From: a virus
Taxonomy: Duplodnaviria; Heunggongvirae; Uroviricota; Caudoviricetes
Reading direction: 5' to 3' (one strand)
DNA: 64,000 bases
IMG/VR virus record: IMGVR_UViG_3300020577_013140
Span: 20,381 to 84,380 of that record
Shown here: in pieces, positions 3,001 to 39,840 of the stretch
How positions within the stretch are numbered: the stretch's first letter is position 1
Layout of the letters: each line of letters starts with the position of its first letter
Made by a program: the position numbers and the translations under genes
Notes under the pieces: model-generated
The model's database searches: none
Seen by the model: the letters and a program-made list of their open reading frames with translations, nothing else
Told to the model about the DNA's origin: nothing

Positions 3001-6000
3001 GAAGAAACATCCGGAGGAGACTATTGGCATGACAGGACCTACACCGACCTCCAGAACAATAGTTACAAGGCCGAGTTGGCAACGCACGGGATATACAGCG
3101 TGTTCCCAGCCAAATACGTGAGTGGTGCATTGACGGTTTACACGAGCGGCGGTGACCAGAACTCCGGCTTTGGCTTAGTGAGCTTGCGCACAGGCTGCGT
3201 CGGGTGTGCACAAAACAGTGCAATCACACCAGTCGGTGAATACGGTAACAAGGTGCACAACATCACCGGACGCGTAGGTATTCGCTTTACAACCGGTAAC
3301 ACACCAATCACCGTTTACGAGCTTGGGCGTATGGTGATCGCCGGCAACAGTCAAATCCATACCGTTCGCCTAATGGCTTCGGATGGTGTGACACAATTGG
3401 CTGCAGTAAATATCGATGCCTCCTCGGCACTGATAAACCCCAATGACACAGCCACATGGACTCCACCGATACTGACTCCAGTCGTAGCTAATGGTGTGAT
3501 CACAGCAATCAACGTCGAAAACTCAGGCAGTGGGCTGGATGCTTCCAAGATAGCGTTGACCAAGCTGTACATCACCGGTGCCATAGGCAGCGGCGCTCAG
3601 GCACAAATTAACGAGATCTACCCAGCCAATTACGTCGCCGGGCAGGACGACCCGCCTTACAGTTACCCGGGTGGTATAAAGAGTGTTACAGTCACAAACG
3701 GAGGCACCGGTTACGCCTCGCCTGTGGTCGTGACATTTACAAATGAGAGCTTCAGAAACTCGGCCCCAGGCCAGCACTTTCCAGCCCAAGCAGTAGCTAC
3801 GGTTGGTGAGCAGGTGGTCGACCGTATTGTCGTGCCTGTCGGTGGAGAGGGAACAGGATATACCACAGCAACCGTACTGCTCTCTGGAGGAGGAGGTACC
3901 GGAGCCAGGGCGACGGCCGAGATAGTTAATGGAAGTATCACCCGCATCACCGTCACGGATCCTGGGCATAACTACCAGAATCCTCCAATCGTCTCAATTT
4001 CCGGAGACGGCACAGGTGCGGAAGGTATAGCCTTTCTGCGGCTGCTTCAGGGGTCTGTGGGGTCAATCGCAAAAATAACCATCACCCCAGAGACAGAGGC
4101 TAATTACGGCTACGTGTTCCCTCCGGATGTAGTCATCACAGGAGGCGACAGTGGCGACAACTCTGCTCACGGCGCATACGGTGTTGCCAAGATGCAAGTG
4201 CTTAACATGGCTGACGACACCAGCATGCGGGTGGTCGGAGTCGATCTGGTGCCTGAGCCTTACGATGGCCTGGCCTCCGTCACTATTCCTTACGACGGCC
4301 CCACCATGACCAAGACCGAGTTTCGGTTTACTCGACTGGCTGACTGGCCGGGAGGTATCAAGAATGCTAACGCAGCGGAAGTGGCAGACATTAGTGTAAC
4401 AGCGACCTCGCTGCTTTCGTTTTACTTCCTTCCTGACCTTCCAGGAAATCCGCATAAGTACGAAATCAAGCGAGCTGACTTTCTGTACGGTTCAGGTTGC
4501 AACCGTACGCCAACCAGTTGGACAACCTTGACTGGGCTGAATGGCGTAACAGGTCCATTGTGTACTGCCAATAGTAACCACTACGAGTACGATGACTGTA
4601 CCGATAACTGTGCCTGCTTGTGGCCGGATCCGACCACCGATCACCTTCTTCCACTACACGCCCCACTGGAAGGTACTGACATAGTGGGTTCCACGTACCG
4701 CATAAAGGATCTGAACGAAATCGGCGGATCAGGGCATGTGACCTCAGTAGCTGTGGACTCACAAGGCACCTCCTATTCTGCTGGCACGTATGCAACTGTT
4801 GTAGGAGGCGGAGGCACAGGAGCCACCGTTGCGCTTACCGTCAGTGGAGGCTTGGTGACAGGCATCACGTTGACAAACACTGGTAGTGGATACACCCAGA
4901 ACCCGCATATCGTAATCACTGACCCGACCGGCGCCGGGCACGGTGCCAAGGCATCGGCTATTGCTGACTCAAAACTACTCAGCTATTACCTGACGTGGCC
5001 TATGCAGCCATTGGTCGTCTACAACGTAGAGCGCCGCCTGTTTTATCGATTCGACTCCGACATGTCGTGGCATACGTTGGCAACCGGCGTACGTGCTCCG
5101 TATATCGACAACGCACCATGGGAAGAAGGATTCTCGAAGGAGATAGGCGTCGATATCGTCGAGAACCGGCAGAGTCTCGGTGCTCCCGTCGTTATAAGCT
5201 CTGACAATAACCAGTCTTCCCAGACTGCCCGCTCCTTCAATATTACGGCCAGCAAAACCTACAAGAACGTTTACGTAAATTGTGTCGTAACGGTGACAAC
5301 ACCACTGGACGGGCAAGTGGGGTCAGTGGATATTGACTTTCCTGTCGAGGAAGTGGTGGTATATGCCGAAGATTCCACCACAATTGCCTTTGAAGACACC
5401 CGCACATTCTCGCAATGGGATGGGCGCATTGTGTCCTTCACCTATACGATGAGTGAAGTTTCATCAGTGACCGCCTCCTGGCCGACGTTGAACAACCATA
5501 AGGTTCTGGTGGAAAACGCAGCGGAGTCTGAGGTGACGTATGAACTGCACCGTACATTTGAAACAGCTGAAAACTCAGGCTCGACCCTGGTTGACGAGAT
5601 CATCGCGGTTTCAAAAATATCTGGTGCTTCAGCGCCGGACTTTAACCTGGCCGCCGACCAAACCGGCATTACCGTGCAATGGACTGGCTGGAATGACGAT
5701 AGTCACAGACGGCTAGACGATGAACGTAACAACATCGGGTTCTCTCCGAAGCCCCGTATTACGAACACCGAAAAGTACCATGTGATCGCGCACTGGAAAG
5801 ACTGGCCGGAAACTCGCTGCATCGAGGACGCTCAACAGAACCGTGAGGAGTGCGATCCCTTGAACCCGGATACTCCATGCATCAATGCAAACCGACAATA
5901 CCGGGTGGAGACAATCGTGGCGGTCAGGAACCGCTGGTTCACCGCCATGCCCATGGGAATTAACATCGAGCGCCCTCAAGGGTTCTCGCCTGTGCCAAAT

Positions 6001-6852
6001 ACTTGCACCTACGCCGAGATGTTCAACAACTTCGCTAACGCGATTAACAAGCTCATCTACGTCCGGTTGGAACTTCCGTTTACCAAGCGCATGCGCAAGA
6101 TGTACCAGACCTCGGTCCCTTCCTCCTTCTGGTCTGCTCAAATTCCTCCGACTGACTGCTCAAGTATTGGCTGTCTAGGCAGCGGTACGGCACGTGGAGT
6201 GTGTGCTGAGGGCGTCGCAGAAACGACGTACACTGATTGGGACGAAATTCCGGTAGCTGCCTCAGTCACAGCTTCGGCGAGCGTAGGCCCAACCGGCTGG
6301 TCCTCGAACGGCGACTGTGTCAACAACATGAAAATGGGCACTTACCGCGCCTCCACACAGTTTGGAGTAGATCCTGACCAGGAAGCGTTCTCAGCCATAC
6401 CCACGGAGCTGCTGGATAATTTCAGCATCACAAACCTGGCGCTGATCGGTAAACGGTCGGACGAATATGGAAACTGCCGTCTCCGTAGCGGGCTGTACCA
6501 GGGATGTGCAGCAGACACCTGTTGCCGAAACTATTACCAGGGTGACTGCGATTGCCAGGATGAACCTGGTGGACCGGTATATACCACCAACCGCTGTGGA
6601 TGTAACTGCAGGTTGCAGGAAAATGGTACCTTTGCCCGAAATGAATGCCGCACACTATGGACCAACGAAGGCGAATGTGCAGTATTTATGGAAGGAGTAA
6701 TTACGGCCCCCGGACTTCCTTGTGGTGACGCTGGTTGGATAGGTGGTAACGGGTTTGAACGGCAGATTCTGTGCACCTCTGGTGCCTCCTGGTCAGCCTC
6801 GTACATCGACGGCATTCGGAGCTTGGTTTACATGAGCTTCCCATTATACTAA
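1..6852 (+). CDS. Giant Gly-rich repeat protein (5'-partial, >=2283 aa), probable virion structural or adhesin protein
   Basis: Open from nt 1 in frame (the track start at 25 is TTG). Repeated G-rich modules (GGTGYASPVVVTF, GGEGTGYTTATVLLSGGGGTGARATA, VVGGGGTGATVALTVSGG..GSGYTQNPHIVITDPTGAGHGA) and a Cys-rich C-terminus (CRLRSGLYQGCAADTCCRNYYQGDCDCQ..). Confidence 0.6.
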   Translation, partial: FEPLAATDLGAGTYFAEYPAGYGKTLNVDIQYRVVAKPVVDANSSKIVLYQRAYFTPAQLSWTGQPEKTYRVKRHQLLANGTEEVVEISSELSGRTSYFFVDAPTSICPVRIHPSHLDEKDLYQVNDSILHYYVYDTTGNQSTLLHSWTPAQLRATSAPLFVVRPDNILPTDAGDLFGVYAQALTDTSNNPLYASPGNERSLISTPGGKGLLYKIYGPNTPAGISGIRFVAPYYDSPVEPLGSKYEQFVELFANETFTWSKERLSTVQNTCSGRPTPCVNPWFPSPLNFYGLEQVWRVTGQPEASSTDIMSQRCRIFQHKRFFGATPMLIENTAGCEPGQFTGVFVFNPAVNSLTGVGNFRTLVTANECWYTGVDNIDSFPIYETVEDFAWNAGLPAYDEAFYSTQWTPWSDATPCTINGADAAWYVLRTGYERLHLQSLMVPAPGEYQVRGLGYITYNGQKYYSGDPITFQSNNLIYNVSDPTMKLVTVTSIACNELVFDFFAGIAPAKDLGESELRDGLIYRVCQGKGITYLKKTNTGQELTTVLPGQTFTWRAGDTSVIRLPANAVSQIRAVEGIIHQEDVPKKGVSNEWCMFLSLNHYHPSESSIWKTDLYGDVMPFLHNRCHTYSIEIKDPYHPVLSQQFCYGQFPPLVSEAPPGYTYLEDINFPYWPDRQVARDYYRSCQVYRQPYMLESVQLVYTPTGQEDADGNPAYSDNIVKVVIRGRIQHTRAAAAAVDSTNDGASDKRAALRSEPYRTDENAIREYLQYNGGHYHCVKGMIGDSATSYNVFTLPDDPMGACHPRFYLVKLVPYVHEDGNTSVEQDSDSLIRVDPYVQMDMYLRAMCGGWMDLDSLKSINCDQGLSSSPVADYLYENLCYQAIRSYGAHLDVTPTVLEGKNFLPLKTLVQYDFDFSQASSGDEQLMLEYRTWLLDRCTWGPWTTYSGAISPTASSTPIGGTGYSTPPVIEVSAGVPEQFKYEALGSPVTLQANTTYFLFSEETSGGDYWHDRTYTDLQNNSYKAELATHGIYSVFPAKYVSGALTVYTSGGDQNSGFGLVSLRTGCVGCAQNSAITPVGEYGNKVHNITGRVGIRFTTGNTPITVYELGRMVIAGNSQIHTVRLMASDGVTQLAAVNIDASSALINPNDTATWTPPILTPVVANGVITAINVENSGSGLDASKIALTKLYITGAIGSGAQAQINEIYPANYVAGQDDPPYSYPGGIKSVTVTNGGTGYASPVVVTFTNESFRNSAPGQHFPAQAVATVGEQVVDRIVVPVGGEGTGYTTATVLLSGGGGTGARATAEIVNGSITRITVTDPGHNYQNPPIVSISGDGTGAEGIAFLRLLQGSVGSIAKITITPETEANYGYVFPPDVVITGGDSGDNSAHGAYGVAKMQVLNMADDTSMRVVGVDLVPEPYDGLASVTIPYDGPTMTKTEFRFTRLADWPGGIKNANAAEVADISVTATSLLSFYFLPDLPGNPHKYEIKRADFLYGSGCNRTPTSWTTLTGLNGVTGPLCTANSNHYEYDDCTDNCACLWPDPTTDHLLPLHAPLEGTDIVGSTYRIKDLNEIGGSGHVTSVAVDSQGTSYSAGTYATVVGGGGTGATVALTVSGGLVTGITLTNTGSGYTQNPHIVITDPTGAGHGAKASAIADSKLLSYYLTWPMQPLVVYNVERRLFYRFDSDMSWHTLATGVRAPYIDNAPWEEGFSKEIGVDIVENRQSLGAPVVISSDNNQSSQTARSFNITASKTYKNVYVNCVVTVTTPLDGQVGSVDIDFPVEEVVVYAEDSTTIAFEDTRTFSQWDGRIVSFTYTMSEVSSVTASWPTLNNHKVLVENAAESEVTYELHRTFETAENSGSTLVDEIIAVSKISGASAPDFNLAADQTGITVQWTGWNDDSHRRLDDERNNIGFSPKPRITNTEKYHVIAHWKDWPETRCIEDAQQNREECDPLNPDTPCINANRQYRVETIVAVRNRWFTAMPMGINIERPQGFSPVPNTCTYAEMFNNFANAINKLIYVRLELPFTKRMRKMYQTSVPSSFWSAQIPPTDCSSIGCLGSGTARGVCAEGVAETTYTDWDEIPVAASVTASASVGPTGWSSNGDCVNNMKMGTYRASTQFGVDPDQEAFSAIPTELLDNFSITNLALIGKRSDEYGNCRLRSGLYQGCAADTCCRNYYQGDCDCQDEPGGPVYTTNRCGCNCRLQENGTFARNECRTLWTNEGECAVFMEGVITAPGLPCGDAGWIGGNGFERQILCTSGASWSASYIDGIRSLVYMSFPLY

Positions 6853-15545: not shown

Positions 15546-16148
15546 TCAACGTATAAACGGATCCCATTCAGGGAACCGAGGGTCGCGCCTTAACCTTACA
15601 GCCATTGGCTTGGGCTTCGGAGGTTCTAGCCTGATCCGTAGAGTCAGTCCGACTTCGTGTGCAGGACGGTCTCCCTTCTTGCGGTTATTAACGATCGCTG
15701 TTAATCCACAATTTGTCCAGTCCGTCTTGCCTCCCTTGGATTGCGCGATGTAGTGGTCCATATCGCAGTCATCCCACTTCATCTGTTCGAGCGTGTACAT
15801 ATCTTTGCCCTTCTGTCTCTCCCATAAAGCCACCTTGGTCAGGTTGGGCTCAACAAGAGGCACACGATCGTATTCCGCAAGTACAATGATGGATGGCACA
15901 CGTATGGTTTGTTTGGCTGTACTCACATGCCGGTCAGTGGGACGAACAGGCAGCGTCAACCAGTCTTCCCACTTGACCGGACCTACGATGTCATGGTTCT
16001 CGTCGACCTCCAGCGCCGTCGCCACTTTCGTAGAAGGGTCCTTGCGCCTTGGTTTGGAAAGGAGGAAAAAAGCACGCCGCACGGATATGAGCCGGAGCGG
16101 CTGCATAAGGCGATTCAACAGCAGTACTTTTTCGTCGAGAATGTTCAT
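15546..16148 (-). CDS. HNH endonuclease
   Basis: DMDHYIAQSKGGKTDWTNCGLTAIVNNRKKG. Confidence 0.55.
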   Translation of the reverse strand: MNILDEKVLLLNRLMQPLRLISVRRAFFLLSKPRRKDPSTKVATALEVDENHDIVGPVKWEDWLTLPVRPTDRHVSTAKQTIRVPSIIVLAEYDRVPLVEPNLTKVALWERQKGKDMYTLEQMKWDDCDMDHYIAQSKGGKTDWTNCGLTAIVNNRKKGDRPAHEVGLTLRIRLEPPKPKPMAVRLRRDPRFPEWDPFIR

Positions 16149-16645
16149 ATGACAACCATGTAGTTTTCGTTCAGTAGTTCCGCCAAGATTGGTCGGACTT
16201 GTGTTTCCCAGTCAAGACCTCCATTACCGCAGCCCACCTTCGGCAGGCAGATCGGCAGGATTTCTTTGGACGCCATTGTATATGATGCCATCACTTGTGG
16301 CCACCATAACGTTAAGGTTATTGCACTGGAGCGGATCAGTGATAAATCTGACGGGTTGCTCCAGTGATGCTTGGTTGGAAACGAGATGAGCCTCCCAGGA
16401 GGGTAAGCAAATGGATGGTTTCCCAGTCCGGCAACCAGGTTCCCCCAATTTTTTCGTACCTCTGGAAATCGCTCGGCCGCATCGCGTGCCAGCCCTTTAC
16501 CCATGATCAACAACCCGTCTCGATTTACAACTCCGTTAGTCGGTATGCAGATCCAGTGGCCCAGTGCATGGTAGTACCACAGGCTCCCTGATTGCGTGCG
16601 CATTGGTGATTTCCTGCCATTGTACGATAAAGGCACCACGACCAA
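16145..16645 (-). CDS. Macro-domain (ADP-ribose binding/processing)-like protein
   Basis: ICIPTNGVVNRDGLLIMGKGLARDAAERF matches a-IVNaaN..GgGV..aI. KVGCGNGGLDWETQVRPIL is the G-rich second motif. The start may be the internal Met at 16603. Confidence 0.4.
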   Translation of the reverse strand: MVVVPLSYNGRKSPMRTQSGSLWYYHALGHWICIPTNGVVNRDGLLIMGKGLARDAAERFPEVRKNWGNLVAGLGNHPFAYPPGRLISFPTKHHWSNPSDLSLIRSSAITLTLWWPQVMASYTMASKEILPICLPKVGCGNGGLDWETQVRPILAELLNENYMVVI

Positions 16646-17015: not shown

Positions 17016-17090
17016 TGCTCCGTACAGGACTTGAACCTGTAGCCTTCTCGTTAGGACCGAGACGCTCTAATCCAGTTGAGCTAACGGAGC
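17016..17090 (-). tRNA. tRNA-Arg(CCT)
   Basis: Cloverleaf with acceptor GCTCCGT/ACGGAGC and anticodon loop GTCCTAA. Confidence 0.7.
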
Positions 17091-17097
17091 GAAGAGG

Positions 17098-17916
17098 TTA
17101 TTGTTGGGTTGCAGCAGAAGCACTATTAAAAACTGGCGGAGCGTTGTCGAAGATTGCTTCCTCCTTGTTCACGACCTTACTAAGTTCGTAAGGCCATTCG
17201 ACTACGTCTGTCCTAAGCACCTTGCTGCCGGGTGGAGGGCGATGTTGCTCCGGGATGGCCACAAAGTCATCCGGGCATAGCTCCCGCTCGACAGTCTGCT
17301 TGCGATAGAAGGCACCGGTCTTAACCCACTTCGGGTAGTCGGCCCAGTTAATACCTTTTTGGAAAAGCATCTCCTGTTGCTCGTCGGCACTTTTACCGTG
17401 CAGCTCTTTGTTCGAATAGTGCGCTTGAGCTGCCGACGAGATGCTATTTCTTCGAGCGTCCTTCTCACGCCACAATAGTACGTTCACAGCTTCGTACTTT
17501 GTCGGAAGCTGCCAAACGCGACAATCAAACGTCGCAGGCTTCACAAGAGGCACTGACAGGCTTTTTCCGAGAAACTCGTTGAACGCCGCAGTGGCGATCG
17601 AAGCCAGTACCGAGGTCAGCTTGTACAGCTTACCATCGAAGAATATCTGTGACTTCGGATTCTCTTGATACAAGATCAAAGAGATCTCATCCGATTGCGT
17701 GTAGCCGATCACGGCCCCAGACTCACGCAGCAGTTGGTCGGTCGCGTAGACAAACGCCGCATGGAGGTCTTCATCAAAGGGTTTCTTGAACCGCTTAGTA
17801 AATGTGTGGAATGCACGCCCATCAATTCGGGCGGCGACTGGAAGCAGAGGGAGTAACGTTCGACCCGTCTCCATTGCTTCATACTCTTTCATCCGATCGC
17901 CAAATTCATCTCTCAT
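17098..17916 (-). CDS. Thg1-like protein (tRNA-His guanylyltransferase / 3'-5' polymerase family, TLP)
   Basis: ARIDGRAFHTF..KPFDEDL..VIGYTQSDEISLIL..FFDGKLYKLTSVLASIATAAFNEF aligns to human THG1L VVRLDGRNFHRF..KPNDSRAL..IVIAYGQSDEYSFVF. Confidence 0.85.
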   Translation of the reverse strand: MRDEFGDRMKEYEAMETGRTLLPLLPVAARIDGRAFHTFTKRFKKPFDEDLHAAFVYATDQLLRESGAVIGYTQSDEISLILYQENPKSQIFFDGKLYKLTSVLASIATAAFNEFLGKSLSVPLVKPATFDCRVWQLPTKYEAVNVLLWREKDARRNSISSAAQAHYSNKELHGKSADEQQEMLFQKGINWADYPKWVKTGAFYRKQTVERELCPDDFVAIPEQHRPPPGSKVLRTDVVEWPYELSKVVNKEEAIFDNAPPVFNSASAATQQ

Positions 17917-17919
17917 AAA

Positions 17920-17949
17920 GAAAAAAGCCTGCGTAAAACGCAGGCGGAA
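17920..17949 (-). terminator. Intrinsic terminator (minus strand) between the tRNA cluster and the Thg1-like gene
   Basis: AAAAAA-GCCTGCG-TAAAA-CGCAGGC. Confidence 0.45.
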
Positions 17950-17950
17950 A

Positions 17951-18053
17951 TGGTGCCCTCGGCAGGATTCGAACCTGCATACGTGCGCTTATCTAGCGCA
18001 TGCTTTCGCCCGGGAATAAGCCGGGAGCCCTAACCAGTTGAAGCTACGAGGGC
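17951..18053 (-). tRNA. Atypical 103-nt tRNA (encoded CCA; anticodon loop CTTATTC giving UAU?) with a 30-nt variable region
   Basis: GCCCTCG..CGAGGGC-A-CCA acceptor, T-arm GCAGG-TTCGAAT-CCTGC, anticodon stem CCCGG/CCGGG, extra hairpin GCATGCGC-TAGATAA-GCGCA. Confidence 0.5.
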
Positions 18054-18272: not shown

Positions 18273-18361
18273 TGGCGGATGGGGAGGGATTCGAACCCTC
18301 ACCGGCTTTTAACCGGGCAGCTTAGCAGGCTGCTCTAGCACTCCAACTCTAGCGCCCATCC
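18273..18361 (-). tRNA. tRNA-Ser(GCT), class II, CCA encoded
   Basis: Acceptor GGATGGG/CCCATCC, anticodon loop CTGCTAA, long variable arm. Confidence 0.7.
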
Positions 18362-18400: not shown

Positions 18401-18685
18401 TCAATTCTTAGGGAGAGGCTTGAAACGGAGGTGTAAACCTTCTTCATGCCATTTTTTGTTAATCCGAAGAAAGCCTCGGAGGTAAAAGCCTTCCTGATCC
18501 ACCCACCAGCGGGTAATCACCCCTTCGAGCTCGGTAAAATCGTGAGGCTGCCCGTCGTTCAAGACAATGTTTTTGGCGGGAGTATCAAGGTAAAAAGTAA
18601 AGGCCTGTCCATCGTTGCAGTGCAGCTCGCCTGCTAGGTTATGGACGTTGTTATCTTTGTCGCATCGCTGAAGATAAGCTTTCAT
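18401..18685 (-). CDS. hypothetical protein
   Basis: 94-aa ORF. Confidence 0.4.
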   Translation of the reverse strand: MKAYLQRCDKDNNVHNLAGELHCNDGQAFTFYLDTPAKNIVLNDGQPHDFTELEGVITRWWVDQEGFYLRGFLRINKKWHEEGLHLRFKPLPKN

Positions 18686-18734: not shown

Positions 18735-18971
18735 TCATGTGCAACAATGCACAACGATGTCGTGCTCCTGTTCCTCCATCCAACGAGGTTTGGCTTTCAT
18801 GTCAGTTCGAGGAGGGTTAATTGGTGGATCCTGGCACTCAAACCAGACTACGATGTCTTGTTCCCCTTGAGCTTCAAACCAACGTGCGAAGTGGCGCGCC
18901 TGCTCAATGGTGAGACCGTCGAAGATTACTCTTGCCATAATGTGTTCTTTTCCCATCGACTGTGGCGCCAA
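18735..18971 (-). CDS. hypothetical protein
   Basis: 78-aa ORF; overlaps the 3' end of the next gene. Confidence 0.3.
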   Translation of the reverse strand: MAPQSMGKEHIMARVIFDGLTIEQARHFARWFEAQGEQDIVVWFECQDPPINPPRTDMKAKPRWMEEQEHDIVVHCCT

Positions 18972-19969
18972 TGGCTGTCTGTGCTTACGTGGTTCGGCCG
19001 TACAAACTTTGCCACGTTACTGCGAAAGGCACCGTAATTGAACGCACTGGAATTGCGCACGACATAGCCTTCCATCAAGTCCGGTGTTCTATTCGGAACA
19101 TACAATGACCGGATCTTCTCTTCATCCCATGCGCCGCGATACAGCACTGGAACTGTTTGAAGCCCAAGTAGTTCTGCCCACTCGGTTGTTTCATCCCAGG
19201 ACAAACAAACGTTCCGTTCGTTCCAAATGGAGAACACCTGGAAATACGCACGCAACTGCTTGTAGTGGATGCTGTGTTTAATCAGTAAGTTCTCTCCGCA
19301 CACACGCCAGCCTTCTGGAATTTCATGTGCGACCTGTGTCCACGCGCGCCATACTTCAGCACGGTCCGCACCACTGGCCTTTTCCAAGGAGCGCGCATGA
19401 ACGTAGTCGTTGTAAAGCGTCGTATTTTCACCATCCAGTTTTTCAGTGACCACCACTTCCATTCCATTGAACGGCTCCAAGGAAGGAAGCACCCGGTCAT
19501 CGCTTGAAGGGCAGGACCAAGGCAAATGATAAGTTCGTGGGTACTTGACGTACTTTACAAACAGAGGCAACACTCCACCTTGTGACAGAATCTTCTGTAC
19601 GCTCTCGTCAAAGAACAACTCGCCTTTTAGCCGTGTGCCATTCGGCAAGACCGGATTGCCCCATTTGTCGTATTCTTGGTCTCGGTACAGATGCGCCGGT
19701 AAAAGAGTCTGTGTTATTCCTGCACGTTCTCGCAAGGTCGCCGGAGACAGTGTCGTCTCCTCGGCCTGGATGTGGTGTATGGCACAGAGGCTTGCTCCGT
19801 TGTCCAGGAAGTAACCGCCGGCCTCAGTCGGCTCCGTCCAGAGCCTCCGCTCCATAATATGATGTGCGTCGAGAGGACCAGAGGCCCGACATACTACGCA
19901 GCGATTGTCGTCGCGGGCAAACACAGCCTCACGAAAAGCGTTACGTTCCAGCAAGGTAGAAGTTGTCAT
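18926..19969 (-). CDS. HNH-nuclease-domain / RNA ligase (Rnl2/Rnl5-like nucleotidyltransferase) fusion protein
   Basis: N-terminal CVVCRASGPLDAHHI..LCAIHH (HNH). C-terminal ligase motifs TEKLDGEN (I), CGENL (III), EGYVVR (IV), KFVR (V). Start moved to the Met at 19969 because tRNA-Leu occupies 19976..20056. Confidence 0.65.
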   Translation of the reverse strand: MTTSTLLERNAFREAVFARDDNRCVVCRASGPLDAHHIMERRLWTEPTEAGGYFLDNGASLCAIHHIQAEETTLSPATLRERAGITQTLLPAHLYRDQEYDKWGNPVLPNGTRLKGELFFDESVQKILSQGGVLPLFVKYVKYPRTYHLPWSCPSSDDRVLPSLEPFNGMEVVVTEKLDGENTTLYNDYVHARSLEKASGADRAEVWRAWTQVAHEIPEGWRVCGENLLIKHSIHYKQLRAYFQVFSIWNERNVCLSWDETTEWAELLGLQTVPVLYRGAWDEEKIRSLYVPNRTPDLMEGYVVRNSSAFNYGAFRSNVAKFVRPNHVSTDSHWRHSRWEKNTLWQE

Positions 19970-19975
19970 AGAAAA

Positions 19976-20056
19976 TGCGCCCAGCAGGACTTGAACCTGC
20001 ACCCCTCACGGGACTAGATTTTGAGTCTAGCGCGTCTGCCATTCCACCATGAGCGC
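19976..20056 (-). tRNA. tRNA-Leu(CAA), class II
   Basis: Anticodon arm CTAGA-CTCAAAA-TCTAG, long variable arm. Confidence 0.65.
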
Positions 20057-20368: not shown

Positions 20369-20461
20369 AGGATGGGGTGGGATTCGAACCCACAGTGCCT
20401 CCCAAACGGGACGCACGCTTGCTTTCCAAGCAAGTGCAATAAACCGTTCTGCCACCCATCC
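20369..20461 (-). tRNA. tRNA-Ser(GGA), class II
   Basis: Acceptor GGATGGG, anticodon arm CTTGC-TTGGAAA-GCAAG, long variable arm. Confidence 0.65.
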
Positions 20462-22726: not shown

Positions 22727-23110
22727 TCATAACGCAAGAGCTAGCTGCCTCAGCTGATCAACTGCCGCATCCGGTGATGGCGCAGGGTCGACAAACCGAA
22801 AGGCAGGGGCCGCCTTTTTCCGGTCTTTCTCCTCCTCCTCGCGCTCTTCTTCTTTGGTAGGAGCCGGACCCATTTGCTTCAGTACGCAAGGTTCACAGTA
22901 GCCCAACAGCTGATACTTGAAAGCATACCATGGGTGGCTAAATGCCTTTGCCTTCCCCTTGCAGAGTTGGCAATTTTCACCGTCATAGAAAATAGGAAAG
23001 CCATCGCTGTCCCGTTTCCATTGTTTGCACTCAGGAAACTTCGGAATATGCCGCTTCCAGAACGGCACAGGTTTTTCTTCTTTGTCGGATTTCTTCATGA
23101 GGTTGGCCAC
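22727..23110 (-). CDS. Cys-rich hypothetical protein (CQLCKGK..CEPC)
   Basis: 127-aa ORF. Confidence 0.4.
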   Translation of the reverse strand: MANLMKKSDKEEKPVPFWKRHIPKFPECKQWKRDSDGFPIFYDGENCQLCKGKAKAFSHPWYAFKYQLLGYCEPCVLKQMGPAPTKEEEREEEEKDRKKAAPAFRFVDPAPSPDAAVDQLRQLALAL

Positions 23111-23574
23111 ACATATGGCAAGTTATCAGGCACTACCCAATTAAACTGGCGGTACCACTCCGGGGCTTTCCGCAGCAAGTTGCTGCGATGTGAATCATGG
23201 AAAGCGTCCGTACCGAACCACGGAGGCTTTAAGGCGTCTTCAGTTTTCGTTGCAGGGTTTACGGCAGGTACCAACGCAATAATCCGTGCACGACAGGAAT
23301 CCCTATAGTTACGACGGACCCATTCATCGCAGATTTCAATACCGTATTCCGCCAGGGAAGGCTCGAATCCTTTCCACATCTTGGCGGCCGGGTGATTCAC
23401 CCACCCTTTCGGGTTGAACGGCTCAACGATCCAGCCGGTAACTGTTTCGACCACCTTCGTTCTGGTCAACGCTTGAAGTAGTTGAACACACTCAACGCGC
23501 TGTTTACCAAGTCGTTTATTGTCCAGCGCCCAAGCTGAGCGCCGGAAGTCAGGATACGGAAGAAAGGTCTGCAT
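23095..23574 (-). CDS. conserved hypothetical protein (N-terminal MQTFLPYPDF..LDNKRLGKQRVE motif)
   Basis: 159-aa ORF; the family was not confidently recognised. Confidence 0.45.
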   Translation of the reverse strand: MQTFLPYPDFRRSAWALDNKRLGKQRVECVQLLQALTRTKVVETVTGWIVEPFNPKGWVNHPAAKMWKGFEPSLAEYGIEICDEWVRRNYRDSCRARIIALVPAVNPATKTEDALKPPWFGTDAFHDSHRSNLLRKAPEWYRQFNWVVPDNLPYVWPTS

Positions 23575-23579
23575 GAAAT

Positions 23580-23661
23580 TGGTGCGAGTGACAGGAGTCG
23601 AACCTGCAAGGGTTTCCCCACGTCGTCCTAAGCGACGCGCGTCTGCCGTTCCGCCACACTC
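23580..23661 (-). tRNA. tRNA-Leu(TAG), class II
   Basis: Anticodon arm CGTCG-CTTAGGA-CGACG, long variable arm. Confidence 0.65.
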
Positions 23662-24104
23662 GCAAAAGTCTTCACCGCGTGACAGTTTGGGCAGAGTGAC
23701 TGTAAATTCTCAATGCGGTTATCGAAATGATCACCATTGATATGGTCCAGCTCCAATGGTATAGAAGTTCCCTGCCACTTACGACGGTTACAATGTTGGC
23801 ATTTGTCTGGGAGTAATCCTTCCGCGACAAGCCTTTTACGCAGCTTGGATGGTGTAATCTTTACTACAGTTTCTCGTGTTAGGTAATCGGTGACTGGGCG
23901 GGCAGGTGGGAAGGTCTTTCCACGCCTCCAAGCTGATCCTGTAAAGTGCGAGCTGTCTATCCCGAGTTGCTGCGCTCTTTTTGTCAAGTGCGTTTGCGCT
24001 CCGGTTGCCGGAGTAACATTTAACTTTTTGCAAACTTGTGCCCAAGATGAGGACGCAGCAATGACAGGTGAGAGCAGTTCTTTTGTATAACGATTTCGTG
24101 GCAT
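23628..24104 (-). CDS. HNH homing endonuclease
   Basis: LELDHINGDHFDNRIENLQSLCPNCH; the C-terminal 11 codons overlap the tRNA-Leu gene. Confidence 0.7.
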   Translation of the reverse strand: MPRNRYTKELLSPVIAASSSWAQVCKKLNVTPATGAQTHLTKRAQQLGIDSSHFTGSAWRRGKTFPPARPVTDYLTRETVVKITPSKLRKRLVAEGLLPDKCQHCNRRKWQGTSIPLELDHINGDHFDNRIENLQSLCPNCHAVKTFASVAERQTRVA

Positions 24105-24145
24105 ACGTACTAATCTTATCGACAGTACGTATGCCAGTCAAGGAA

Positions 24146-25483
24146 CTATTCGTAGTTCCGAATCGCCCTTACAAAGGGGATCTGAGGAACTCCATATTCC
24201 GACAGCTGTTGGTATTCCACAGTAGCCATCTCGCCGATGAACTCCTCACGGCGTTCATACAGTTCACGTAGCCATTCACGATCACCCTCAATATTGGAGG
24301 CAAACGCTGTCTCACCTGTGGGAGTAGGATCGTGAAGCTTGAGCACAATGCGTTTGGCGCACCCGACCCAATCTCCATTACCCTCCTCGATGGCAACGAC
24401 TTCAAACTCGTCGTCATCCTCGTGCTTAAGCTTTAGCATCTGTTTGGATCGTCCATGCTTGAACTCGCATTTACCCCAGCGGATCATCAGACCTTCACCC
24501 TTGGCTGCCTTGTTGGCTTCCATGAGCTTGGTGATCTCGGCCTTGGATTTGGCCACGACGTACGGGTGCATCACCAGATGGCGGCCGACCTTGTATTTCT
24601 TCTGGATATCCTCAATCAAGGTCTTGACCGCAGCATACCGCTCAATCCACGGAGTTTCCGTAGTAATACCATTGAAGCCGTAACCATCGAACACGTAGAA
24701 CTTGACCAGCTCTTCGGATTCGGCACGCATCTCAGGCGTGATGTCCTTGGGTTGATAGACCACGCTGACGATCTCAACCAACCGGTTCAGTCGTTCCCGC
24801 AACTCGTGATTGTGCGCTTCGCCGTCAATGAACGCTTCCGGATGCTCCGCGAAGATAGGCGAAAGGGCCGCACGGATATGGGGAATCGTATGAAATAGTT
24901 TTCCGCCTGTCGACAGTGCGCCCACCGCGGTGTTCTGACAGCGGATGCCGTTGAGCTTGTCTTGGACATAGACCGGATATTCGACTTCATCTTCTCGGTC
25001 GACGAACTTGTCACCCTTCATGGGTTTCTTGAACGCGACTTTGTCGACCGCCTTGATATCAGCCGTGTAGCCAAGGGTTTGCTTCTTGTCCCATTTGGCT
25101 TTCGCTTCCTTGATGGCTTGCTCGGCCGCCGTGGTAGCGTTCGCCTTGCCGGTGTTCTTGGCTTCACAGGTATGCGCCGCGGAGGTCGTCAACTTGCCAC
25201 CGACAACACCCTCTTCAACGAAGTAGCTGTTGCCTTTGGTATAGATGCGCCACTGCTGGAGCTTACCGTTAGAATTTCGTTTGTAGAGAGTTGCTAGTGT
25301 TTCGGACATGTTGTTGAATTGAATTGCGGCGCCACACGCTCCACCGTTTGCAACCGGTGCCCAATGCTTAATCGGGTTGCTACCCTGAGTTGTGGTCTTC
25401 GGGGCCGTCGCCCCTGTTTCGGATACCATGTACGCCGTATCTCGGTAGTTCTGAGCACGGAACGTTTTGATCACGGGCCGCAA
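24146..25483 (-). CDS. ATP-dependent DNA ligase with N-terminal extension
   Basis: Motifs KLNGIR (I), FIDGEAH (III), EGLMIR (IV), LKLK (V); start uncertain. Confidence 0.7.
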   Translation of the reverse strand: MRPVIKTFRAQNYRDTAYMVSETGATAPKTTTQGSNPIKHWAPVANGGACGAAIQFNNMSETLATLYKRNSNGKLQQWRIYTKGNSYFVEEGVVGGKLTTSAAHTCEAKNTGKANATTAAEQAIKEAKAKWDKKQTLGYTADIKAVDKVAFKKPMKGDKFVDREDEVEYPVYVQDKLNGIRCQNTAVGALSTGGKLFHTIPHIRAALSPIFAEHPEAFIDGEAHNHELRERLNRLVEIVSVVYQPKDITPEMRAESEELVKFYVFDGYGFNGITTETPWIERYAAVKTLIEDIQKKYKVGRHLVMHPYVVAKSKAEITKLMEANKAAKGEGLMIRWGKCEFKHGRSKQMLKLKHEDDDEFEVVAIEEGNGDWVGCAKRIVLKLHDPTPTGETAFASNIEGDREWLRELYERREEFIGEMATVEYQQLSEYGVPQIPFVRAIRNYE

Positions 25484-28914: not shown

Positions 28915-29460
28915 CTACGACCCGTGGTGGTCGATCGGCTTCCAGTTTTTCTTTGCCATGTATATCGCGACCTCATCAAAGGTGACAGGGCGATATCCGT
29001 GAACGTCCACGCCAACGTCGATTGACCGAGCATTGGGGTCGTCCGGCAAAGAGCCATGGGAATGGCCGTACAGTTGCCAGGTGCCGTGGTGTGACTTGTT
29101 CCACACTCTCATGGCATAGTGGCTTAATATAATCCGTTGTCCTTCGACGTCTACCTCTGCTTCAGCTGGAAGAAAGGTAACCTTGTGATCCCACCGTCGT
29201 TCCTGACGGACGCGCTTCATTTCTTTGTCGTGATTTCCCATGACGAAGAAGATGTGTCCATTCAGTCTGGAGAGATATCTTTCTGAGGGGGCGAAGGAGA
29301 AATCCCCCAAGTGATACACGGTTTCCTCCGGTCCAACAACTGCGTTCCAGTTTTGGATCAGTGATTCATCCATGTCGTAAACGCTCTTAAAAGGGCGGTT
29401 ACAATACCGAATAATATTTGCGTGGCCGAAATGTGTATCGGCCGTGAAGTATGTGTTCAT
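28915..29460 (-). CDS. Metallophosphoesterase (lambda-phosphatase / YfcE-like)
   Basis: ADTHFGH, GDFSF and GNHDKE motifs. Confidence 0.65.
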   Translation of the reverse strand: MNTYFTADTHFGHANIIRYCNRPFKSVYDMDESLIQNWNAVVGPEETVYHLGDFSFAPSERYLSRLNGHIFFVMGNHDKEMKRVRQERRWDHKVTFLPAEAEVDVEGQRIILSHYAMRVWNKSHHGTWQLYGHSHGSLPDDPNARSIDVGVDVHGYRPVTFDEVAIYMAKKNWKPIDHHGS

Positions 29461-32804: not shown

Positions 32805-32893
32805 TGGCGGAGACGGTAGGATTCGAACCTACGGCGGTGTGACCCGCGTCCGTTTTCAAAACGGATGCCTTAGACCGGCTCAGCCACGTCTCC
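32805..32893 (-). tRNA. tRNA-Ser(TGA), class II, CCA encoded
   Basis: Acceptor GGAGACG/CGTCTCC, anticodon arm TCCGT-TTTGAAA-ACGGA. Confidence 0.7.
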
Positions 32894-33307
32894 TAAAACT
32901 GTGATTGGAAAATCAGCTATAAGTAGCCTCGATTTAGCGTATTTACTGGGGGTTGTCGCCAACGATACCGTGCACGTGGATTTTACGTCTGCTGCTGGTA
33001 TCCAGCAAACCAAGTCTAATTCGTTTATGTAGACTGCAAGGACGTCACACTCTGTGGGGTCAAAACGAACAATGGTGTTAGTGCTTTTGTTAGGACGTAC
33101 TTTTTTGATTTGAACAGGATATGACCCATCTGAGCCCCTAACATTCGTGCTCTTTACAGAGATGCGAAGAAGCTGAGCACCTTTGGACGCAACCAAGTCA
33201 AATGGTGCTTTTCCAGAGATCTGCGAAAACACGTGATAACGTGCCTTGGTCAGCTCATAGATGGCCCGTGCCTCAGCTTTTGCCGAAAAATATGTCTTGT
33301 CATCCAT
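32870..33307 (-). CDS. hypothetical protein, possible PD-(D/E)XK-like nuclease fold
   Basis: 145-aa ORF with an FDLVA..LLRISVKS pattern; the 3' end overlaps tRNA-Ser. Confidence 0.35.
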   Translation of the reverse strand: MDDKTYFSAKAEARAIYELTKARYHVFSQISGKAPFDLVASKGAQLLRISVKSTNVRGSDGSYPVQIKKVRPNKSTNTIVRFDPTECDVLAVYINELDLVCWIPAADVKSTCTVSLATTPSKYAKSRLLIADFPITVLGDVAEPV

Positions 33308-34823: not shown

Positions 34824-34827
34824 ATGG

Positions 34828-35240
34828 TGGAGATGCCGGGAGTTGAACCCGGGTCCCATAAACCAACTATCAACCAATGCTACATGCTTAGTTCGTTCAA
34901 ATAAGACCTCATACCCGAATGAACAAAGGAGTGAGGAATTTATCCACTGTGATATGAACGCCGGTACTGTGGACCCTGTGGCGTAAACCCTGAAAAACAC
35001 CGACCCTAAATATCAGGAGTCTCCAGGCGGTGGCTTCACCATGATTAGGCGAAGGCGAGCTGGGCAGGGGCAGGAAGCGCAAAGGCAGCCTTGACCGAAG
35101 CCCAGGCATTCTTGGCAAAACCGACAACTGCATTGATCACGTTATTGGCGTGTTGTTTTGATGGGTGTTGAAAGGGCTAACCATCATCCCTTGCATGCAT
35201 TGAGTATCCGTTTAGTCTAGGTCGAAACCAGTACATCCCC
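34828..35240 (-). ncRNA. ssrA: tmRNA (ssrA)
   Basis: 5' end GGGGATGTACTGGTTTCGACCTAG pairs with 3' end GGTTCAACTCCCGGCATCTCC-ACCA, a tRNA-Ala-like T-arm and acceptor. An internal ORF ends ..AKNAWASVKAAFALPAPAQLAFA* (candidate tag). Confidence 0.6.
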
Positions 35241-36440: not shown

Positions 36441-36554
36441 AGCACCTGGTTGGACTCGAACCAACGGCCAGACCTTGCTCCCGGCATTTTGGTCCTTCAC
36501 CATTGCACTCTCGTGCTTGAGGGAGGTCTGCTCTACCAACTGAGCTACAGGGGC
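36441..36554 (-). tRNA. tRNA with 41-nt insertion in the anticodon loop (putative intron; identity unresolved)
   Basis: Canonical acceptor GCCCCTG, D-arm GCTC-AGTTGGTA-GAGC and T-arm GTTGG-TTCGAGT-CCAAC. Anticodon stem GACCT...AGGTC is separated by 48 nt instead of 7. Confidence 0.55.
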
Positions 36555-39756: not shown

Positions 39757-39764
39757 AAAAAAAT

Positions 39765-39836
39765 TGGCCGAGGGAGGGGTCGAACCTCCAATCTATCACT
39801 TACTAGAGCGATTGCTTTACCATTAAGCTACCCGGA
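39765..39836 (-). ncRNA. tRNA-like element (T-arm GGAGG-TTCGACC-CCTCC; acceptor and anticodon arms not resolvable)
   Basis: T-loop signature and tRNA-like spacing, but no canonical acceptor pairing was found. Confidence 0.25.
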
Positions 39837-39840
39837 AAAA

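Follow-up and report, generated by a model that had tools for sequence, protein, structure and literature searches.

A phage HNH nuclease-ligase fusion of the DR_B0100/LigB clade encoded in a tRNA array, with a possible role in RNA break repair

The window analyzed here is a 64,000-nt stretch of a caudoviricete virus record (IMGVR_UViG_3300020577_013140, positions 20,381 to 84,380). It contains a complete open reading frame (ORF) for a 347-aa protein that lies between tRNA genes and joins an HNH nuclease-like module to a ligase domain. The gene and its surroundings, listed in the direction of transcription, are as follows.

19976-20056, minus strand: tRNA-Leu(CAA), 6 nt upstream of the fusion ATG (ARAGORN, Rfam)
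18926-19969, minus strand: HNH-ligase fusion ORF, complete, 347 aa (ORF list and sequence)
18401-18685, minus strand: 94-aa ORF directly 3' of the fusion gene; the related contig L006 has a called gene in the matching position
18273-18361, minus strand: tRNA-Ser(GCU), on the same strand further downstream (ARAGORN, Rfam)
17954-18053, minus strand: tRNA-like gene of 100 nt whose D-loop is enlarged by about 28 nt (Rfam tRNA, 47.1 bits)
17927-17945, minus strand: terminator-like hairpin, 8 bp (6 GC) followed by a T-run (consensus scan; number of sites not above the shuffled expectation)
17098-17916, minus strand: Thg1-like 3'-5' nucleotidyltransferase, from a family that repairs tRNA 5' ends; the following gene (Pfam Thg1, E=5.9e-30; phrog_4717, E=3.5e-81)
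16145-16645, minus strand: macro-domain (DarG-like ADP-ribosyl hydrolase) protein (NCBIfam DarG, E=5.6e-14; phrog_335, E=7.1e-20)
15546-16148, minus strand: second HNH protein, free-standing, 200 aa; its homologues are found with the HNH-ligase in tRNA arrays elsewhere

No Shine-Dalgarno sequence is present between tRNA-Leu(CAA) and the fusion ATG, and the two genes are likely carried on one transcript. The hairpin at 17927-17945 would, as read from the sequence, close a unit composed of tRNA-Leu, the fusion gene, the 94-aa ORF, tRNA-Ser and the 100-nt tRNA. The last of these lies 873 nt 3' of the fusion stop codon and is probably on the same transcript. The synteny of the Thg1-like gene is shared with L006, and the macro-domain gene is located 2.3 kb downstream of the fusion gene. 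The second HNH protein belongs to a cluster (cluster 11) spanning L006, L008, L025 and L037 (BLASTP to L025, E=1e-11). On the Variovorax RA8 plasmid (L080), an HNH endonuclease is annotated at the equivalent position. The tRNA region of the window also encodes a DenV-like glycosylase, an ATP-dependent DNA ligase and a PD-(D/E)XK nuclease; no kinase, HD-Pnk or Tpt1 was found within the window. A nucleotide search of the region against a phage collection gave no near match.

Regarding the short tRNA insertions reported in the earlier note, they are indeed present in two tRNA genes of the window: the D-loop of one (17954-18053) is lengthened by about 28 nt, the anticodon loop of the other (36441-36554) by about 41 nt. 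The tRNA with the D-loop insert is conserved in L006 and L008, both of which are related phage contigs carrying the fusion gene. Comparison of these contigs revealed that the insert is a hairpin, conserved between them and marked by a compensatory substitution; for this reason, it looks more like a structural arm that is kept than like an intron. Among eight array-bearing loci scanned with Rfam, an over-long (100-nt) tRNA occurs in L006 and L008 only, and it is this same tRNA. Intron models proposed by ARAGORN for the two odd tRNAs were forced and mutually inconsistent, and were dropped. A search of IMG/VR for the tRNA with the anticodon-loop insert, by pattern and via its neighboring protein, found nothing.

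The modules and motifs of the fusion protein, numbered by residue, map to the window as follows.

19556-19969, minus strand: N-terminal module, aa 1-138, a predicted HNH nuclease with a conserved extension (DKWGN, GELFFDESVQK)
19760-19912, minus strand: HNH beta-beta-alpha-metal core, aa 20-70, with C24xxC27, D34-A-H36-H37, N57 and C62xxH65-H66
18926-19555, minus strand: C-terminal adenylyltransferase (ligase) domain, aa 139-347, assigned by sequence to the DR_B0100/LigB clade
19424-19441, minus strand: ligase motif I, KLDGEN, aa 177-182; K177 is the predicted AMP-accepting lysine
19286-19300, minus strand: ligase motif III, CGENL (E226); E226 and N227 invariant
19055-19072, minus strand: ligase motif IV, EGYVVR (E300); E300, G301, V303 and R305 invariant
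18998-19009, minus strand: ligase motif V, KFVR (K321); K321 and V323 invariant

The earlier note read 18926-19969 as a single polypeptide fusing an HNH nuclease-like domain to an Rnl2/Rnl5-type RNA ligase. The fusion itself, with an HNH nuclease-like domain and a PF09414-superfamily ligase domain on one chain, is confirmed by domain matches and by a confident AlphaFold (AF2) model of all 347 residues (pLDDT 93.1, pTM 0.87). The profile phrog_24030 matches over its full length (E=7.5e-127; aa 6-343 against profile positions 3-339 of 342). In an alignment of 37 homologues, the catalytic residues of both domains are all invariant. Conservation is high in the linker between the domains, and the AF2 model shows this linker, and with it the two-domain arrangement, as rigid. 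Sequence searches of the PDB, run both with this protein by itself and with a family profile, returned just chance hits (FABP) and a weak match to IscB.

The N-terminal module is, on sequence and model, a predicted zinc-binding HNH nuclease. The motif described previously (CxxC...DAHHI...LCAIHH) holds up, in that the catalytic and zinc-ligand residues H36, H37, N57, H66, C24, C27 and C62 show no variation within the family, the most divergent members included. The beta-beta-alpha-metal core is present in the AF2 model, and its fold matches the HNH domains of McrA and IscB; the nearest HNH structures in a fold search are all DNases (McrA, IscB, Cas9, Cap5 and TagI). Profile matches are weaker: Pfam HNH_2 scores 17.2 bits, under its cut-off of 21, and seven HNH PHROGs match with E-values from 2.8e-5 to 5e-4. 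Some homologues carry a precomputed PF01844 match. The boundary of the module is marked by L074, an HNH-only ORF corresponding to aa 1-138 alone, and by NTase-only homologues that begin at about aa 139-143. An exhaustive search with the HNH module yielded 327 cluster representatives (E<=1e-10), in which the module is always N-terminal. Ten representatives, taking in all eight listed matches longer than 430 aa, were scanned for other domains; eight carry an RNA_ligase domain, a ninth matches BACON weakly and the tenth has no Pfam domain. Thus, this type of HNH module is almost exclusively attached to this ligase.

The C-terminal domain has the adenylyltransferase fold. As the earlier note had suggested from its motifs, it aligns to nucleotidyltransferase superfamily models; PF09414 (RNA_ligase) matches the fusion protein with 105.5 bits (cut-off 27), covering model positions 2-171 of 171. 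K177, D179 and G180 of motif I are invariant in the 37 homologues, as are the key residues of the other three motifs named there, and motifs III, IIIa (FQVFSIW), IV and V follow in order. In some homologues, inteins are inserted exactly at motif I. The closest folds to the ligase domain are RNA nick-sealing ligases. The domain shares 51% identity with Deinococcus DR_B0100 over the whole length (about 205-210 aa, E=2e-63); motifs I-V align, and K177 falls opposite K40 of DR_B0100, a lysine whose replacement by alanine (K40A) abolished adenylylation (PMC1997131). Identity with DRB0094 (DraRnl) is 25% over 159 aa (E=5e-5), confined to the NTase core. An identification of the Deinococcus plasmid match as DRB0094 was rejected, since gene order and direct comparison pointed to DR_B0100. 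The superfamily part of the previous assignment therefore stands, and the placement in Rnl2 or Rnl5 proper does not. Strictly speaking, the fusion fits neither Rnl2 nor Rnl5, as it is without the C-terminal domain of the former and the N-terminal OB domain of the latter; judged by its sequence, it is a member of the DR_B0100 (LigB/DdrP) clade. T4 Rnl2 and kinetoplastid REL1 have a C-terminal helical domain, whereas the fusion protein ends 23 residues past motif V. Rnl5 enzymes (DraRnl DR_B0094 and Naegleria NgrRnl) have as their signature an N-terminal OB domain, which is required for nick joining; the fusion has the HNH module instead, and this module has no similarity to the DraRnl N-terminus.

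Fusions of this kind are not new and represent a known, very common family. Section 3.4.9 of Iyer et al. 2021 (PMC7824862) describes HNH fusions to Rnl2-family ligases, citing Burroughs & Aravind 2016. Relatives in the databases number more than 7,800, spread over jumbo phages, an archaeal virus, megaplasmids and many phyla of bacteria. Full-length identity of about 55-60% is kept across phyla, and the window protein is 31-55% identical to the phage proteins named below. In phages, the DR_B0100/LigB clade is most often met in its HNH-fused form. HGTV-1 gp136 (annotated 'RNA ligase / HNH endonuclease domain'), CcrBL9 gp226 and ME3 gp200 are family members, and these 'Rnl2-family' ligases (phrog_24030) share both architecture and family with the window protein; the cultured phage RsoM2USA has a homologue as well. 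NTase-only relatives also exist, namely DR_B0100 and the XacN1 version; no split-off HNH gene lies beside the NTase-only versions at the XacN1 and D. radiodurans loci. Conversely, a Bacteroidota sub-clade retains the HNH intact and has lost the catalytic residues of the ligase, so that the HNH would be able to work without sealing by the same protein. No biochemical study of HNH-fused family members was found in the searchable literature.

With respect to genomic neighborhoods, the fusion gene recurs within tRNA arrays of phages and bacteria, and its recurrent neighbors are RtcB, HD-Pnk, cREC, RlaP, Thg1 and macro genes. HD-Pnk follows the fusion gene in six other family loci; in L054, the family ligase ORF overlaps the HD-Pnk start. 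Genes for SAM-methyltransferases lie upstream of the fusion gene in five loci. This context points to RNA/tRNA break repair, and the re-ligation of cleaved tRNAs suggested in the earlier note fits it. Several observations count against such a reading. The commonest neighbor in viral loci is an ATP-dependent DNA ligase (8 of 80), the characterized jumbo phages with a fusion gene have no tRNA within 6 kb of it, as is the case in cultured HGTV-1, CcrBL9 and ME3 and in contrast to the array beside Thg1 in the window, and most family members, including most cellular loci, are far from tRNA genes. The lack of kinase and Tpt1 matches in the window and the DNase character of the nearest HNH structures weigh in the same direction. 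Among 70 cellular and 80 viral loci, no universally conserved neighbor was found, the top 'clusters' being antisense shadow ORFs.

Several characterized systems are comparable in part. DR_B0100 is an orphan ligase that forms ligase-AMP by self-adenylylation, yet the protein alone sealed no test substrate. It consists of the NTase domain alone, whereas the fusion has an extra 138-aa N-terminal HNH module, and it is encoded in a radiation-induced operon on a megaplasmid, whereas the window gene lies in a tRNA array. The DR_B0100 operon includes PARG/macro and HD-Pnk genes; HD-Pnk is common to other family loci, and the window has a macro-type ADP-ribosyl hydrolase nearby. The Runella slithyformis cluster (Tpt1, MTase/HIT, ligase-like, HD-Pnk) shows the same ligase/HD-Pnk overlap as L054, and its MTase recalls the SAM-methyltransferase genes of the five family loci; Tpt1 and HD-Pnk belong to this cluster and were not found in the window. 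The Runella ligase, like DR_B0100, adenylylates and seals no standard substrate, and is perhaps a member of the DR_B0100/LigB clade. T4 Pnkp-Rnl1 is a phage counter to host anticodon nucleases and ends in ATP-dependent sealing of 3'-OH and 5'-PO4 termini. Its ligase is of a different family from that of the fusion, and it heals ends by kinase-phosphatase action; the module attached to the fusion ligase is a nuclease, with which healing would be by cutting.

In the reading that we prefer, and to which we give about an even chance, the fusion protein of this jumbo phage is a member of a tRNA-array unit and takes part in the repair of RNA (chiefly tRNA) breaks, with the HNH and ligase modules acting on the same substrate. 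Lys177 would accept AMP from ATP and hand it to a 5'-phosphate end, and attack by a 3'-OH would seal the break. HNH enzymes leave 5'-PO4 and 3'-OH ends, exactly those that the attached ligase would need; because this ligase class joins such ends, the end chemistry of the two modules is compatible. The HNH may engage the substrate or trim otherwise unligatable ends and would thereby supply what the NTase-only relatives lack. Such repair would help translation survive host tRNA-cleaving defenses. That the substrate is RNA and not DNA is inferred, as is any functional coupling of the two modules; the existence of NTase-only and HNH-only forms counts against action on the same substrate. A stricter version, in which cutting and sealing are self-contained on one RNA and the HNH cleaves or trims a damaged or insertion-bearing tRNA to 5'-PO4 and 3'-OH ends that the LigB-type ligase joins at once, seems unlikely.

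A different possibility, which we regard with some doubt, is that the modules have two independent jobs, as suggested in print (Iyer et al. 2021, PMC7824862, section 3.4.9), the HNH being a DNase against host or competing-phage DNA, or of the homing type, and the ligase repairing RNA separately. The closest HNH structures are DNA nucleases, the modules occur apart and the dead-ligase clade retains its HNH. The patchy spread over phyla, phages and megaplasmids, which resembles horizontal transfer, and the intergenic position between tRNA genes are likewise typical of mobile nuclease genes. However, the full-length identity kept across phyla is unlike that of fast-decaying homing endonucleases, the HNH module is almost exclusive to this ligase, and the linker is highly conserved and rigid in the model. 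Moreover, many bacterial chromosomes carry the gene, and a free DNase with no immunity partner would be a hazard to them; no conserved partner was found. DNA repair, as proposed for LigB/DdrP, would have the HNH nick or trim damaged DNA or RNA-DNA junctions and the ligase reseal DNA. It draws on the link of the radiation-induced DR_B0100 operon to DNA repair, on the DNA ligase that is the commonest viral neighbor, on the glycosylase, DNA ligase and nuclease genes of the tRNA region, and on the precedent of the Rnl5 enzyme DraRnl, which was named an 'RNA ligase' and proved important for DNA repair. We consider it improbable, as this phage already encodes a dedicated DNA ligase, the recurrent neighbors are RNA-specific (RtcB, cREC, RlaP, Thg1 and tRNA arrays) and the closest ligase folds seal nicks in RNA.

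The earlier note had also proposed protein-only splicing, in which the HNH excises the insert of a tRNA and the ligase joins the halves. Two insertion-bearing tRNA genes are at hand, one of them probably cotranscribed with the fusion gene and conserved in both related phage contigs, and HNH products would be directly ligatable. Nevertheless, this idea seems very unlikely, given the conserved hairpin with its compensatory change, the restriction of the over-long tRNA to two of the eight array-bearing loci, the inconsistent intron models and the distance of most family members from any tRNA gene. Equally remote is a purely nucleic-acid-binding or structural HNH domain without nuclease activity, comparable to the OB domain of Rnl5 or the C-terminal domain of Rnl2. 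The module does occupy the same N-terminal place as the essential OB domain of Rnl5, the model is a rigid two-domain one, and NTase-only DR_B0100 is unable to ligate alone; yet pure binding needs none of the His-His pair, the Asn and the metal-binding His that are invariant even in the most divergent members, and the module stays intact where the ligase is dead.

Self-adenylylation of the DR_B0100/LigB clade with no ligation by the protein alone has been observed in two laboratories, and the question of its substrate dates from 2007. The attached nuclease, together with recurrent placement in tRNA arrays and beside RtcB, HD-Pnk, cREC and RlaP, allows guesses at that substrate that can be put to the test. 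If the modules act separately, the fusion would be one more bifunctional phage accessory protein. If cutting and sealing do occur on one RNA, this would represent a kinase-free route of RNA repair or editing and would account for the apparent inertness of DR_B0100-type ligases on standard substrates. If the two modules cooperate, as in the preferred reading, the family would follow an RNA-repair logic unlike the kinase-phosphatase route of T4 and may provide phages with a counter-defense against tRNA-cleaving immunity.

The HNH-ligase gene is an open reading frame of 347 aa at 18926-19969 (-) with its ATG at 19969. The earlier note described a single polypeptide with HNH and ligase motifs; the ORF is real, and every quoted motif is found in it:

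Residues 24-27: CVVC
Residues 34-38: DAHHI
Residues 61-66: LCAIHH
Residues 177-182: KLDGEN
Residues 224-228: CGENL
Residues 300-305: EGYVVR
Residues 321-324: KFVR

A GTG at 20002 was rejected as the start codon, as it would overlap tRNA-Leu(CAA) at 19976-20056 and the homologues start at the ATG. The ligase motifs align to the nucleotidyltransferase superfamily, residues 171-323 matching the whole Pfam RNA_ligase model (PF09414, E=4.3e-30). Residues 9-79 match seven HNH PHROGs at about 1e-4 to 1e-5, Pfam HNH_2 alone falls below threshold (17.2 vs 21 bits), and phrog_24030 ("RNA ligase") covers the whole protein (E=7.5e-127). The observation of an HNH nuclease-RNA ligase fusion is confirmed. 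The AlphaFold2 model, for which 37 homologues were the input, has a mean pLDDT of 93.1, a pTM of 0.87 and a linker without disorder, and it contains the beta-beta-alpha layout of an HNH metal core (strands 34-37 and 58-61, helix 63-70). The 37-sequence alignment revealed invariant residues in the HNH part (C24, C27, H36, H37, N57, C62 and H66) and in the ligase part (K177, D179, G180, E226, N227, E300, G301, K321 and V323), and both sets are kept in the most divergent fused members, those of the archaeal virus HGTV-1 and Acinetobacter phage ME3. Both conditions under which the earlier note would have been refuted were thus checked, and it withstood them. These data show a two-module enzyme with purifying selection on both predicted active sites.

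Regarding the class of the ligase, the earlier placement in the Rnl2/Rnl5 class with DRB0094 as reference has to be withdrawn. The ligase module shares 51% identity with a D. radiodurans pMP1 protein over its entire 210 aa (E=2e-63), whereas DraRnl (DR_B0094, 342 aa, same plasmid), rejected as a close relative, shares 25% over 159 aa (E=5e-5); this match is limited to the NTase core, leaving the N-terminus without any match, and the HNH-ligase protein lacks an Rnl2-type C-domain. Downstream of the pMP1 gene come a microbial PARG and then an HD+P-loop kinase. As this order matches the radiation-induced operon DR_B0100 (ligB/ddrP)-DR_B0099-DR_B0098 (HD-Pnk) (PMC6300522; PMC11833690), the relative is identified as DR_B0100. 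K177 aligns to K40 of DR_B0100, and the K40A variant loses adenylylation (PMC1997131). Wild-type DR_B0100 forms enzyme-AMP and ligates neither DNA nor RNA (PMC1997131; restated in PMC5397189), and a Runella "ligase-like" protein encoded just upstream of HD-Pnk behaves in the same way (PMC6097658). Judged from sequence, the ligase half is a member of the LigB clade, an orphan as to substrate.

The module boundary lies at about residues 138-140, where NTase-only proteins begin (DR_B0100, XacN1 ORF260, Atu_ph07 and those of B. cereus plasmids); among the NTase-only genes examined, none has a separate HNH gene beside it. An exhaustive search with residues 1-138 matched 551 cluster representatives, of which 327 reach E<=1e-10, with the module N-terminal in every case. 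A Pfam scan of ten representatives, including all eight listed matches longer than 430 aa, detected RNA_ligase in eight, only a weak BACON in one, and no Pfam domain in one of 133 aa. One locus, L074, has an ORF corresponding to the 1-138 module alone, with no ligase within 5 kb; in this Fermentibacteria MAG (4453-6756), the stand-alone HNH module (133 aa) is flanked by HD_4 and PIN-PhoH genes. In the forms of 698-743 aa (P0134, P0144, P0176 and P0187), a Hint+LAGLIDADG intein interrupts the same protein precisely within motif I (KxDGE|intein|C). The homologue P0159 (530 aa) carries a mini-intein in the same site, and in P0201 the linker between HNH and ligase holds 177 aa of additional low-complexity sequence. 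Four Bacteroidota members form a dead-ligase sub-clade:

L063, 4926-5864: dead-ligase member
L065, 4992-5894: dead-ligase member
L068, 4956-5900: dead-ligase member
L070, 1011-1850: dead-ligase member

Every HNH residue is kept in this sub-clade and the ligase catalytic residues are lost: in three of the four, Q or V replaces the motif I lysine; motifs III and IV have lost their glutamates; and R, Q, E or V stands in place of the motif V lysine. HD-Pnk lies 0.6-0.95 kb downstream in relatives of this sub-clade (L064, L065, L068, L071 and L072). The HNH module is thus specifically tied to the LigB-type ligase fold, yet some lineages can do without one activity or the other.

At least 7,847 relatives are present in the protein database; the best 120 are all full length, with 56-89% identity. 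Among viruses, full-length versions are known from Caulobacter jumbo phages (CcrBL9, CcrSC and others), Acinetobacter ME3, Ralstonia RsoM2USA, Salicola SCTP-2 and Halogranum virus HGTV-1, whose gp136 bears the annotation "RNA ligase / HNH endonuclease domain". Relatives are also encoded by 277 IMG/VR contigs, by megaplasmids of Variovorax, Pseudomonas, Bosea, Erythrobacter and others, and by chromosomes or MAGs of at least 10 bacterial phyla. The fusion is therefore not new but one more member of a known, biochemically uncharacterised family, and Iyer et al. had already described HNH fusions to Rnl2-family ligases; a literature search found no study on the biochemistry of any fused member.

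In the window, 6 nt separate tRNA-Leu from the ATG, and this spacer (19970-19975, TTTTCT) holds no Shine-Dalgarno sequence; the gene lies within an array of 34 co-oriented tRNAs predicted by ARAGORN. The Rfam scan contributed a tmRNA and two more tRNA-like genes, and DNA-repair-type genes also lie among the tRNAs:

34825-35240 (-): tmRNA within the array, matching the full Rfam model RF00023 at 108.9 bits and missed by ARAGORN
Within 23095-25483, 28915-29460 and 32870-33307 (-): DenV-like pyrimidine-dimer glycosylase, separate ATP-dependent DNA ligase, metallophosphoesterase and PD-(D/E)XK nuclease

Downstream follow a 94-aa ORF, tRNA-Ser, a 100-nt tRNA with a D-loop insert, a strong terminator-like hairpin, a Thg1-like gene, tRNA-Arg(CCU) (17016-17090), a macro-domain gene and a second HNH gene; the related phage contig L006, encoding an 86% identical protein, has the same gene order. 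No Tpt1 or kinase was found in the window. At 39764-39838 (-), ARAGORN called a tRNA whose "anticodon" has two bases (tRNA-??? (ag)); the Rfam match there is weak (41.4 bits, model positions 3-68). A very long ORF (2275 aa, 25-6852 (+)) occupies the window start. The closest relative in the genome collection is L008, a contig of 211 kb that was binned as Sediminibacterium (Bacteroidota MAG); this binning and the absence of a Shine-Dalgarno sequence weakly suggest a Bacteroidota host.

The tRNA insertions mentioned in the earlier note are borne out by two genes to which Rfam aligned the full tRNA model. The 100-nt tRNA-like gene at 17954-18053 (-) has 35 nt in place of a 7-nt D-loop, the ~28 extra nt forming a hairpin with a 5-bp stem and a 7-nt loop. 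Its counterparts (L006 11878-11977 and L008 6725-6824) are 96% conserved, with compensatory G-to-A / C-to-T changes in the 5-bp stem and another compensatory change in the anticodon stem, which argues for the insert as a probable retained structural arm. The anticodon loop of this gene, missed by ARAGORN, is UAGAUAA, with A at position 33. The 114-nt gene at 36441-36554 (-) has 47 nt in place of 6 in the anticodon loop, with ~41 extra nt at the canonical intron position; a pattern scan of IMG/VR gave no relatives.

Placement in long tRNA arrays recurs in independent lineages, namely Paucibacter soli (31 tRNAs), Variovorax JS1663 (25) and a Variovorax RA8 plasmid, and likewise in phage relatives. 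Three Armatimonadales contigs show the order array, RtcB, HNH-ligase gene. Published work on long tRNA arrays in bacteria independently reported that an HNH gene and rtcB are linked to such arrays (PMC8421152). The association is partial: 7 of 60 cellular and 11 of 80 viral loci lie in arrays, a tRNA lies no more than 6 kb away in 34 of the 80 viral loci, and CcrBL9, ME3, SCTP-2 and HGTV-1 have none within that distance of the gene. Over the nearest 2 kb, cellular loci carry ~0.27 tRNAs per kb, ~20x a typical bacterial average that is our own estimate. Tight same-strand cellular neighbours (n=55) include RtcB (three), cREC (two) and RlaP (one); six loci have HD-Pnk 3' of the gene, with an overlap of the two in L054, and five have a SAM methyltransferase 5' of it. 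Viral loci (n=80) show no recurring tight partner, their commonest neighbours being ATP-dependent DNA ligase (8/80), R2K ATP-grasp, peptide deformylase, NAMPT and metallophosphoesterase. The second HNH protein of the window (15546-16148 (-)) is free-standing and Cas9/HNH_5-like. Its homologues occur in the HNH-ligase arrays of L006, L008, Paucibacter and Variovorax JS1663 (cluster 11), and include:

L025, 6328-6897: second-HNH homologue
L037, 6878-7867: second-HNH homologue

At the corresponding place, Variovorax RA8 has a gene annotated as an HNH endonuclease (L080 10322-10885), likened here by position and annotation. There are hints that the second HNH and the HNH-ligase belong to a shared, possibly mobile, tRNA-array accessory set.

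HNH nucleases leave 5'-PO4/3'-OH ends, and ligases form enzyme-AMP on a lysine, pass AMP to a 5'-PO4 and close the break by attack of a 3'-OH. As HNH ends are of this type, HNH products would be ligase substrates. By established ligase chemistry, Lys177 would be adenylylated, AMP would pass to the 5'-PO4 end, and 3'-OH attack would close the break, while the HNH module may engage or trim the substrate. Such an RNA/tRNA break-repair enzyme is the preferred reading, with about an even chance of being correct, because RNA-repair genes occur beside the gene, it sits in tRNA arrays, the HNH is paired exclusively with this ligase, the model is rigid and the NTase-only relatives are inert. Three things speak against obligatory coupling of the modules: the clade with a dead ligase, the occurrence of each module on its own, and HNH relatives that resemble DNases. 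The published suggestion that the two have independent functions is a possible but tentative alternative; Iyer et al. proposed that the HNH acts against rival DNA and the ligase in RNA repair.

DNA repair, as suggested for LigB, is unlikely. Splicing of insertion-bearing tRNAs by the HNH-ligase is highly improbable, as the conserved D-loop insert with its compensatory changes argues for a structural arm, and, beside the selection on both active sites, a purely structural HNH module is just as hard to credit. As a whole, the earlier interpretation is partly supported. What this analysis usefully adds for the family is the recurring association with tRNA arrays and HD-Pnk/RtcB, the re-assignment of the ligase half, on sequence grounds, to the orphan LigB clade, and a "pseudo-ligase" sub-clade.
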